From the NCBI RefSeq assembly GCF_013122565.1, contig NZ_CP053258.1: DNA of 64,000 nucleotides. One strand, written 5' to 3'. Made by a program: the position numbers and the translations under genes. The notes under the pieces are model-generated. The model was not told the DNA's origin. It saw only the letters and a list, made by a program, of their open reading frames with translations, and made no database searches. Origin of the DNA: Escherichia coli (GTDB lineage: Bacteria > Pseudomonadota > Gammaproteobacteria > Enterobacterales > Enterobacteriaceae). Of this stretch, positions 38,430 to 38,952 are shown one piece after another. The first letter of the stretch is position 1. Each line of letters opens with the position of its first letter.

Positions 38430-38952
38430 AAAAATAATCCTTCGCCTTGCGCAAACCAGGTACTGGTATTGTTATTAACGAGAAACGTGGCTGATTATTG
38501 CATTTAAACGGTGTAACTGTCTGCGTCATTTTTCATATCACATTCCTTAAGCCAATTTTAATCCTGCTCAAATGACCGTCTATGCTTAAAAAACAGCCGC
38601 ATCAGCATCAATACTACTGAAGCAACTGAATTGTATAAGTTAATTTAATGTTAAGTAGTGATTCGTGCCGGGGCGATGTCTCGTTTTACCTGACCGTCGA
38701 AGACAATTATCAGTCTTTATCCGGCGTTCTAAGGTATTTATCCCACTATCACGGCTGAATCGTTAATATTTTGCGAGTTCACGCCGAAATACTGATTTTT
38801 GGCGCTAGATCACAGGCATAATTTTCAGTACGTTATAGGGCGTTTGTTACTAATTTATTTTAACGGAGTAACATTTAGCTCGTACATGAGCGGCTTGTGT
38901 GGCTCCTGACACAGGCAAACCATCATCAATAAAACCGATGGAAGGGAATATC

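Follow-up and report, generated by a model that had tools for sequence, protein, structure and literature searches.

Divergent sigma70 regions of Escherichia coli, in which back-to-back genes with short 5' UTRs are separated by AT-rich DNA that carries ArcA, Cra or Lrp sites between the two start sites, are close described counterparts of the intergenic region between ydgH and pntA (here called the gap). The gap shares this arrangement and departs from the usual pattern in being longer (523 bp), in having an ArcA box that lies far from both starts and in the spacing within its pntA half, which is kept to within +/-2 bp across genera. Operators for ArcA-P are recognized by a 15-bp box with at least two (T)GTTA direct repeats at 11-bp spacing and by occupancy in vivo, all of which apply to the box in the gap, its occupancy according to published ChIP data; it resembles known ArcA-P operators in its closeness to the consensus, its ChIP coverage and the invariance of its repeats, but whereas most studied ArcA sites overlap a promoter and repress it, ArcA is here reported to be a distal activator. 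Lrp-activated promoters such as ilvIH and gltBDF have upstream arrays of phased sites. The pntAB promoter is similarly bound and activated by Lrp (PMC2689187) and is preceded by conserved islands recurring over ~184 bp, but it differs from the ilvIH/gltBDF type in that its best Lrp match reaches 11-12 of 15 positions and in that Lrp is a putative occupant of the conserved block described below. Structured leaders, riboswitches and attenuators, of which the nearby mdtU-mdtJI leader is an example, have in common with the gap a long AT-rich stretch before a metabolically responsive operon; unlike them, the ydgH-pntA gap has no conserved RNA structure, conserved uORF, terminator, Rfam family or documented long transcript, and it also serves a divergent gene. 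We regard it as highly probable that the gap is a bidirectional promoter/operator region and not a leader, given that the genes are divergent, that start sites are reported in the literature on both strands and that regulator sites lie between them.

Gene arrangement and composition of the gap

The window (the whole stretch of E. coli DNA that was analysed, 64 kb) carries ydgH at 37485-38429 (- strand) and pntA at 38953-40485 (+ strand, ATG at 38953), so that the gap lies upstream of both genes; this divergent order is kept in 70+ enterobacterial species. The boundaries, AT-richness and multiple A/T tracts that had been given for the gap in a preliminary description all hold: the coordinates agree exactly with the RefSeq annotation of near-identical E. 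coli genomes, the GC content is 39.8% (50.2% in the window, 51-53% in the flanking genes and 43.4% in the other intergenic gaps) and there are 10 runs of four or more A/T bases, against 5.9 +/- 2.2 in shuffled sequences (p about 0.05). The gap is thus AT-rich with A/T tracts, yet only slightly more so than usual E. coli intergenic DNA. Of the 40 gaps that the window's first 50 kb contain, it ranks second in length, the longest being the dtpA-nth gap (610 bp, 4352-4961, 38.5% GC), which lies upstream of dtpA. The annotation of MG1655 has no feature within the gap. Identity of at least 95% to the 524-bp query 38430-38953 was found in 5423 of 5426 complete E. coli genomes, and the gap differs from that of K-12 MG1655 at five positions without any indel, so that K-12 literature coordinates convert one-to-one. 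Elsewhere in the window, small proteins are annotated in a near-identical RefSeq strain (43078-43248, 44996-45079 and 45784-45855): YdgV ahead of mdtJI, and a pair of short hypothetical ORFs on either side of asr. In K-12 the corresponding mdtJ leader is annotated with the uORF mdtU. The features of the gap are collected in Table 1.

Table 1. Elements of the ydgH-pntA gap, in window coordinates
Feature	Position	Strand	Description
Whole divergent intergenic region	38430..38952		523 bp, 39.8% GC; very probably bidirectional promoter/operator
ydgH 5' UTR	38430..38486	-	57 nt; SD AAGGA and small ACCAG/CUGGU hairpin
ydgH sigma70 promoter	38487..38536	-	start-site upstream sequence in PMC3415461
ydgH extended -10, TGCAATAAT	38502..38494	-	promoter weight matrix
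ydgH -35, CAGACA	38523..38518	-	upstream of mapped start
ydgH A-tract, TGAAAAAT	38535..38528	-	UP-element-like
ArcA box, GTTAATTTAATGTTA	38639..38653	+	two direct repeats of GTTAA at 11-bp spacing
Cra (FruR)-type operator, GCTGAATCGTTAAT	38754..38767	+	overlaps weaker ArcA motif 38762-38776
Nearly invariant 55-bp block, TAGATCACAGGCATAATTTTCAGTACGTTATAGGGCGTTTGTTACTAATTTATTTT	38806..38861		63 enterobacterial species
Likely pntA core promoter	38844..38874	+	TTGTTA (38844-38849), 19-bp spacer, TAACAT (38869-38874)
pntA 5' UTR	38881..38952	+	~72 nt; variable hairpin-forming 5' part
Last 37 nt of pntA leader, CAAACCATCATCAATAAAACCGATGGAAGGGAATATC	within 38881..38952	+	conserved; SD GGAAGGG 38940-38946, CCAUC/GAUGG stem
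GTG extension of pntA ORF, very probably spurious	38899..38952	+	18 codons; ORF list, 528 aa

Promoters and leaders on the two strands

On the - strand, the start site of ydgH has been mapped at K-12 (.2) position 1676394, i.e. 38486 in the window, with 76 reads and a 57-nt UTR (PMC3415461 supplement). When the 63-species alignment was scanned with a sigma70 weight matrix the ydgH -10 element was found at the identical alignment column in 61 species; the promoter as a whole is nearly invariant in this alignment, and conservation is about 96% in the segment 38430-38470, next to the start codon of ydgH. In our reading a strong, conserved sigma70 promoter of constitutive type drives ydgH. In Salmonella a ydgH::gfp fusion (-58 to +60, with a 58-nt UTR) is repressed by the sRNA SdsR (PMC5137417), and the 57-nt leader in E. 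coli may permit such sRNA control, although the SdsR-ydgH pairing was not located, RNAduplex energies being no better than those for shuffled leaders. A genomic SELEX peak for the sigmaE holoenzyme lies at ~38626 (K-12 (.2) 1676254), in the middle of the gap (PMC5493296), and a putative sigmaE promoter is mentioned in a ydgH study; a search of both strands of the gap with the sigmaE consensus gave weak matches (8/12).

On the + strand, one adaptive SNP has been described 62 nt downstream of the pntA start site and another 49 nt upstream of it (PMC6090065); from these distances the start is 72 nt ahead of the ATG, at ~38881. The preliminary description had treated the whole interval as a 520-bp leader of pntA; this has to be given up, as by the reported start the leader is ~72 nt long and the other end of the gap belongs, on the opposite strand, to the ydgH promoter and the 57-nt ydgH leader. 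The ~390 bp that separate the start sites are probably untranscribed. A second, distal pntA start is conceivable, because a single start was found in the literature and pntA is missing from the genome-wide start-site set of PMC3415461. For the reported start, TTGTTA-19-TAACAT is the best-placed sigma70-like pair; it is weak (6.6 bits) and we infer it to supply the exact -35 and -10 elements. The TTGnnA form of the -35 is kept (TTGTAA in Salmonella, TTGCAA in Erwinia), the -10 is conserved in Escherichia, Salmonella and Citrobacter only, and the same weight-matrix scan that recovered the ydgH promoter as a positive control found no positionally conserved sigma70 promoter for pntA across genera.

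Within the pntA leader the ~55 nt preceding the conserved 37-nt segment cannot be aligned between genera. On the + strand 38862-38917 nevertheless folds better than shuffled sequences (mean z -1.67 over 57 species, compared with -0.83 for its - strand), whereas four control segments range from -0.02 to -0.32 whichever strand is folded. This fits a short pntA leader with species-specific 5' hairpins. As these hairpins begin directly after 38861 in many species, the ancestral pntA start may, it is suggested, lie upstream of 38881. Folding of single sequences of the ydgH and pntA leaders gave energies no better than those of shuffled ones, and sliding windows in RNAalifold on both strands detected two tiny stems only, each beside an SD.

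The ORF list extends pntA upstream to a GTG, and the earlier judgement that this extension is not translated is well founded. The GTG at 38899 was found in Escherichia only, other species having in-frame stops 4-69 codons upstream; the segment 38899-38952 is poorly conserved and has non-triplet indels; and homology to solved PntA and alanine dehydrogenase chains starts at query residue 19-20, which is the annotated Met. Translation of the extension is, to judge from these comparisons, very unlikely. An in-frame ATG five codons upstream of the pntA start (38938-38940) is conserved in most species; it is located within the SD block, is not preceded by a separate SD and in Salmonella is not in frame with pntA.

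Regulator sites and the invariant block

The ArcA box matches the consensus GTTAATTAAATGTTA at 14 of 15 positions and is the sole match with two or fewer mismatches in the 64-kb window (0.23 expected; 20 of 100 shuffles gave at least one). An ArcA motif, TAACATTAAATTAAC (p=6e-8), under ArcA ChIP peaks marked 'Activation' of pntAB (PMC3974632 supplements) maps exactly onto 38639-38653, and the same source has the weaker second motif shown in Table 1. The box is conserved in 58 of the 63 species, in all of which both GTTAA repeats are invariant. Most of the weight in this assignment is carried by the conservation and the published ChIP data rather than by the rarity of the motif. The box lies at -235 from the pntA start and -160 from the ydgH start, and ~235 bp is far for simple activation of pntA by ArcA.

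The Cra-type operator is the sole exact match in the window to RSTGAAWCSNTHHW, which we take to be the Cra consensus, although with 0.53 matches expected by chance this is weak evidence when taken alone. Binding of Cra in SELEX and repression of pntAB by Cra in vivo have been reported (PMC8085971). The site is not conserved outside Escherichia/Salmonella.

Transhydrogenase is classically leucine-repressed, and a study from 2016 is said to have dealt with 'Distinct transcriptional regulation of the two E. coli transhydrogenases'. Lrp ChIP gave 2.8x enrichment at pntA, with a positive effect on expression (PMC2689187). Matches to the Lrp consensus in the gap have 3-4 mismatches (the best 11-12/15) and occur at about twice their density in the window, an excess that is not decisive; 61 of the 63 species have a Lrp-like 15-mer at 38826-38840, but with four mismatches (11/15). 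The CRP-like sequence TTGGCGCTAGATCACA (38799-38814) has a perfect right half and three mismatches overall, and its half-site TAGATCACA is conserved in 42/63 species, though such matches occur in the window no more often than chance predicts (208 observed, 230 expected); on the pattern alone, TAGATCACA is not assigned to CRP. Consensus scans of the gap for IHF and Fis gave nothing or weak matches, and no motif common to the gap and the region upstream of sthA (udhA) was found above chance. Near 38693-38703 most species have a perfect palindrome, CGCTTAAGCG (within GCCGCTTCGCTTAAGCGAATTATC), whose E. coli counterpart is the degenerate CGTCGAAGAC; it may represent a transcription-factor site that E. 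coli has lost.

The nearly invariant block that overlaps the likely pntA -35 element has the enterobacterial consensus TAGATCACAGGCgttATTTTCAGTAGGTTATAGAAAGTTTGTTACtgtTtTATTTT, and its core, TTTTCAGTAGGTTATA, is kept even in Erwinia and Edwardsiella. The block is probably an operator for one or more factors together with the upstream half of the pntA promoter, Lrp being a candidate binder. Adaptive mutations fall in it. A SNP at pntA -121 (38832) arose in a K-12 gnd-knockout lineage, and pntA mRNA was raised by 2.1-3.2 log2 in all three evolved gnd strains, the carrier of the -121 SNP included (PMC6090065). The same position was mutated independently in BL21 evolution, as was -120 (38833); a 1-bp deletion from the BL21 evolution at pntA -191 maps to 38762, inside the Cra/ArcA site, and evolution SNPs at -10 and -7 (38943 and 38946) fall within the pntA SD. 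It should be noted that the BL21 study left unreported how its mutations upstream of pntA affect promoter or RBS function. Improvement of a -10 or -35 element was considered for the -121 and -120 SNPs and rejected, as the G->A and T->C changes jointly improve no hexamer: on the opposite strand G->A would create TATAAT and T->C would destroy it. Action of these mutations through loss of a protein-binding site is favoured but not proven. The view taken from the start that the gap is regulatory is therefore borne out by published data: ArcA ChIP peaks and motifs, binding of Cra and Lrp, and adaptive up-mutations.

Fixed spacing, alternative readings and control of pntAB

For comparison between species 80 enterobacterial pntA loci were collected, 63 species being included in the alignment. 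Conservation is a mosaic whose blocks coincide with the ydgH promoter, the ArcA box, the invariant block and the SD segment. Poor conservation and a single start near the pntA ATG had been named in the preliminary description as observations that would count against a regulatory leader; as to the first, conservation is locally very high, and as to the second, the proximity stands, the one literature start being ~72 nt from the ATG.

In each of the 70 species with both elements the ArcA box and the invariant block are 181-185 bp apart, the distance being 183-184 bp in 62 species. Erwinia keeps this distance with an intervening sequence that is about 45-60% identical. Between the block and the SD, by contrast, species have anything from 80 to 231 bp. 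Every larger insertion is located in the stretch that separates the ydgH promoter from the ArcA box. The fixed distance on one side and the insertions on the ydgH side tie the ArcA box to pntA and not to ydgH. In two species of Buttiauxella (L045 and L047), which have the largest insertion, the gap is ~1950 bp long and contains an inserted 275-aa ORF, MTLQYQYPEHLRH...GVYIFYG... (intergenic ~700-1550), which from its sequence looks GIY-YIG/Cho-like, and a further locus (L039) has a different insertion of ~1050 bp; in all three the pntA-side module is intact. Conserved islands repeat every ~25-35 bp in the stretch from the ArcA box to the block. The fixed spacing of 183-184 bp suggests a phased multi-protein complex on the DNA. 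It is a tentative proposal, possible but not one that we would call probable, that the pntA half is a module of fixed geometry (ArcA box, ~184 bp of islands and 55-bp operator) on which one phased nucleoprotein complex sets the NADPH supply, and that the -120 and -121 mutations break it. The proteins bound to the 55-bp operator in such a complex may be Lrp, ArgP or another factor.

Of the alternatives to a bidirectional promoter/operator region, the one that survives best, although we judge it improbable, is a long regulatory leader: pntAB would be transcribed from a distal promoter with a leader of at least 300 nt, control would be by RNA structure, attenuation or a binding partner, and the invariant block would act as RNA. 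A TTGACC-18-TATGAC element on the + strand (columns ~38598-38637) is present in 24 of the 63 species (L006, L015, L019 and 21 further loci), though not in E. coli, and its +1 would fall on the ArcA box; within the block an inverted repeat, CAGTA...TACTG, is followed by TTTTATTTT; mutation of two adjacent block positions, with raised expression in one carrier, fits loss of an attenuator; and one start-site set lacks a proximal pntA start. Against this, the start reported for E. coli is 72 nt from the ATG, and the distal -35 and -10 elements are degenerate in Escherichia, Salmonella and Citrobacter. Searches of 37300-39300 on both strands with Rfam 15 (E<=10) gave chance-level matches only, far below the gathering scores, the RNAalifold consensus energy was 0.0 in every window of 38516-38903 on both strands, and the fold z values on the + strand (-0.35 for 38639-38861 and +0.38 for the invariant block) were not significant. 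The stem in the block is AU-rich, with 5-6 bp and a 15-17-nt loop, and was not called by terminator prediction; nor does the gap contain a conserved short ORF or a conserved terminator of the kind expected for a regulatory uORF or leader peptide. RNA structure prediction, which had been proposed as a check on the leader, thus gave no folding signal, consensus structure or Rfam match in the ~390-bp middle. As a variant of the fixed-geometry proposal, ArcA may occlude a distal promoter that gives a pntA leader of ~310 nt outside the Escherichia/Salmonella/Citrobacter clade; a long leader may accordingly be present in other genera, and for the E. coli sequence it is unsupported.

That the gap is mostly neutral spacer, with function confined to its two promoter-proximal ends of ~100 bp and the middle conserved by recent ancestry, is very improbable. 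The segments 38540-38580 and 38715-38765 are indeed only 30-50% conserved and E. coli has lost several consensus islands, the CGCTTAAGCG palindrome among them, but the mid-gap ArcA box is invariant and bound in vivo, its distance from the block is held constant beside a leader in which the block-to-SD distance ranges almost threefold, and an adaptive deletion lies at 38762. Least probable of all is an unannotated gene for a small protein or sRNA between the two promoters, for which one could cite the conserved gap length (489-554 bp in 63 of 73 species), several ORFs of 33-36 codons, the sigmaE SELEX peak (PMC5493296) and a terminator-like hairpin at 38669-38683, but at most 33 of the 63 species have any given E. 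coli ORF intact, the best small ORF (MKNDADSYTV, 38504-38536, - strand) falls on the UP and -35 elements of ydgH, conservation has no 3-nt periodicity and length differences between species are of 1-2 bp and not triplets, there is no Rfam match and no conserved promoter-terminator pair in the gap, the hairpin at 38669 is not conserved and the MG1655 annotation is empty there. The absence of RNA structure, ORF and periodicity signals points to function of the gap at the level of DNA.

In the bidirectional promoter/operator reading, a weak, activator-dependent promoter on the + strand would start the pntAB mRNA ~72 nt before the ATG; the 5' hairpins of this mRNA would probably be stabilizing and the 37-nt ribosome-binding segment would set translation. 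The ~390-bp middle would bind regulators that adjust transhydrogenase expression to redox state, carbon flux and amino-acid supply. ArcA-P would bring in the redox signal at the ArcA box and at the weaker motif, Cra would bring in glycolytic flux at its operator, and amino-acid supply would probably be signalled by Lrp and/or a different protein bound to the invariant block. The sign of each of these inputs is taken from the literature or inferred.

The region is in these respects an ordinary one, and a control region that has already been studied. PntAB supplies a large share of the NADPH of E. coli and its upstream region is often mutated in adaptation and engineering; reading the gap as promoter and operator shows engineers and annotators where the control elements lie, namely the ArcA box, the Cra site, the block around -120 and the SD, and the upstream GTG start should stay unannotated. 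The spacing of 183-184 bp, which leaves the overall picture unchanged, is a small clue that several regulators may act on pntAB as one architecture.
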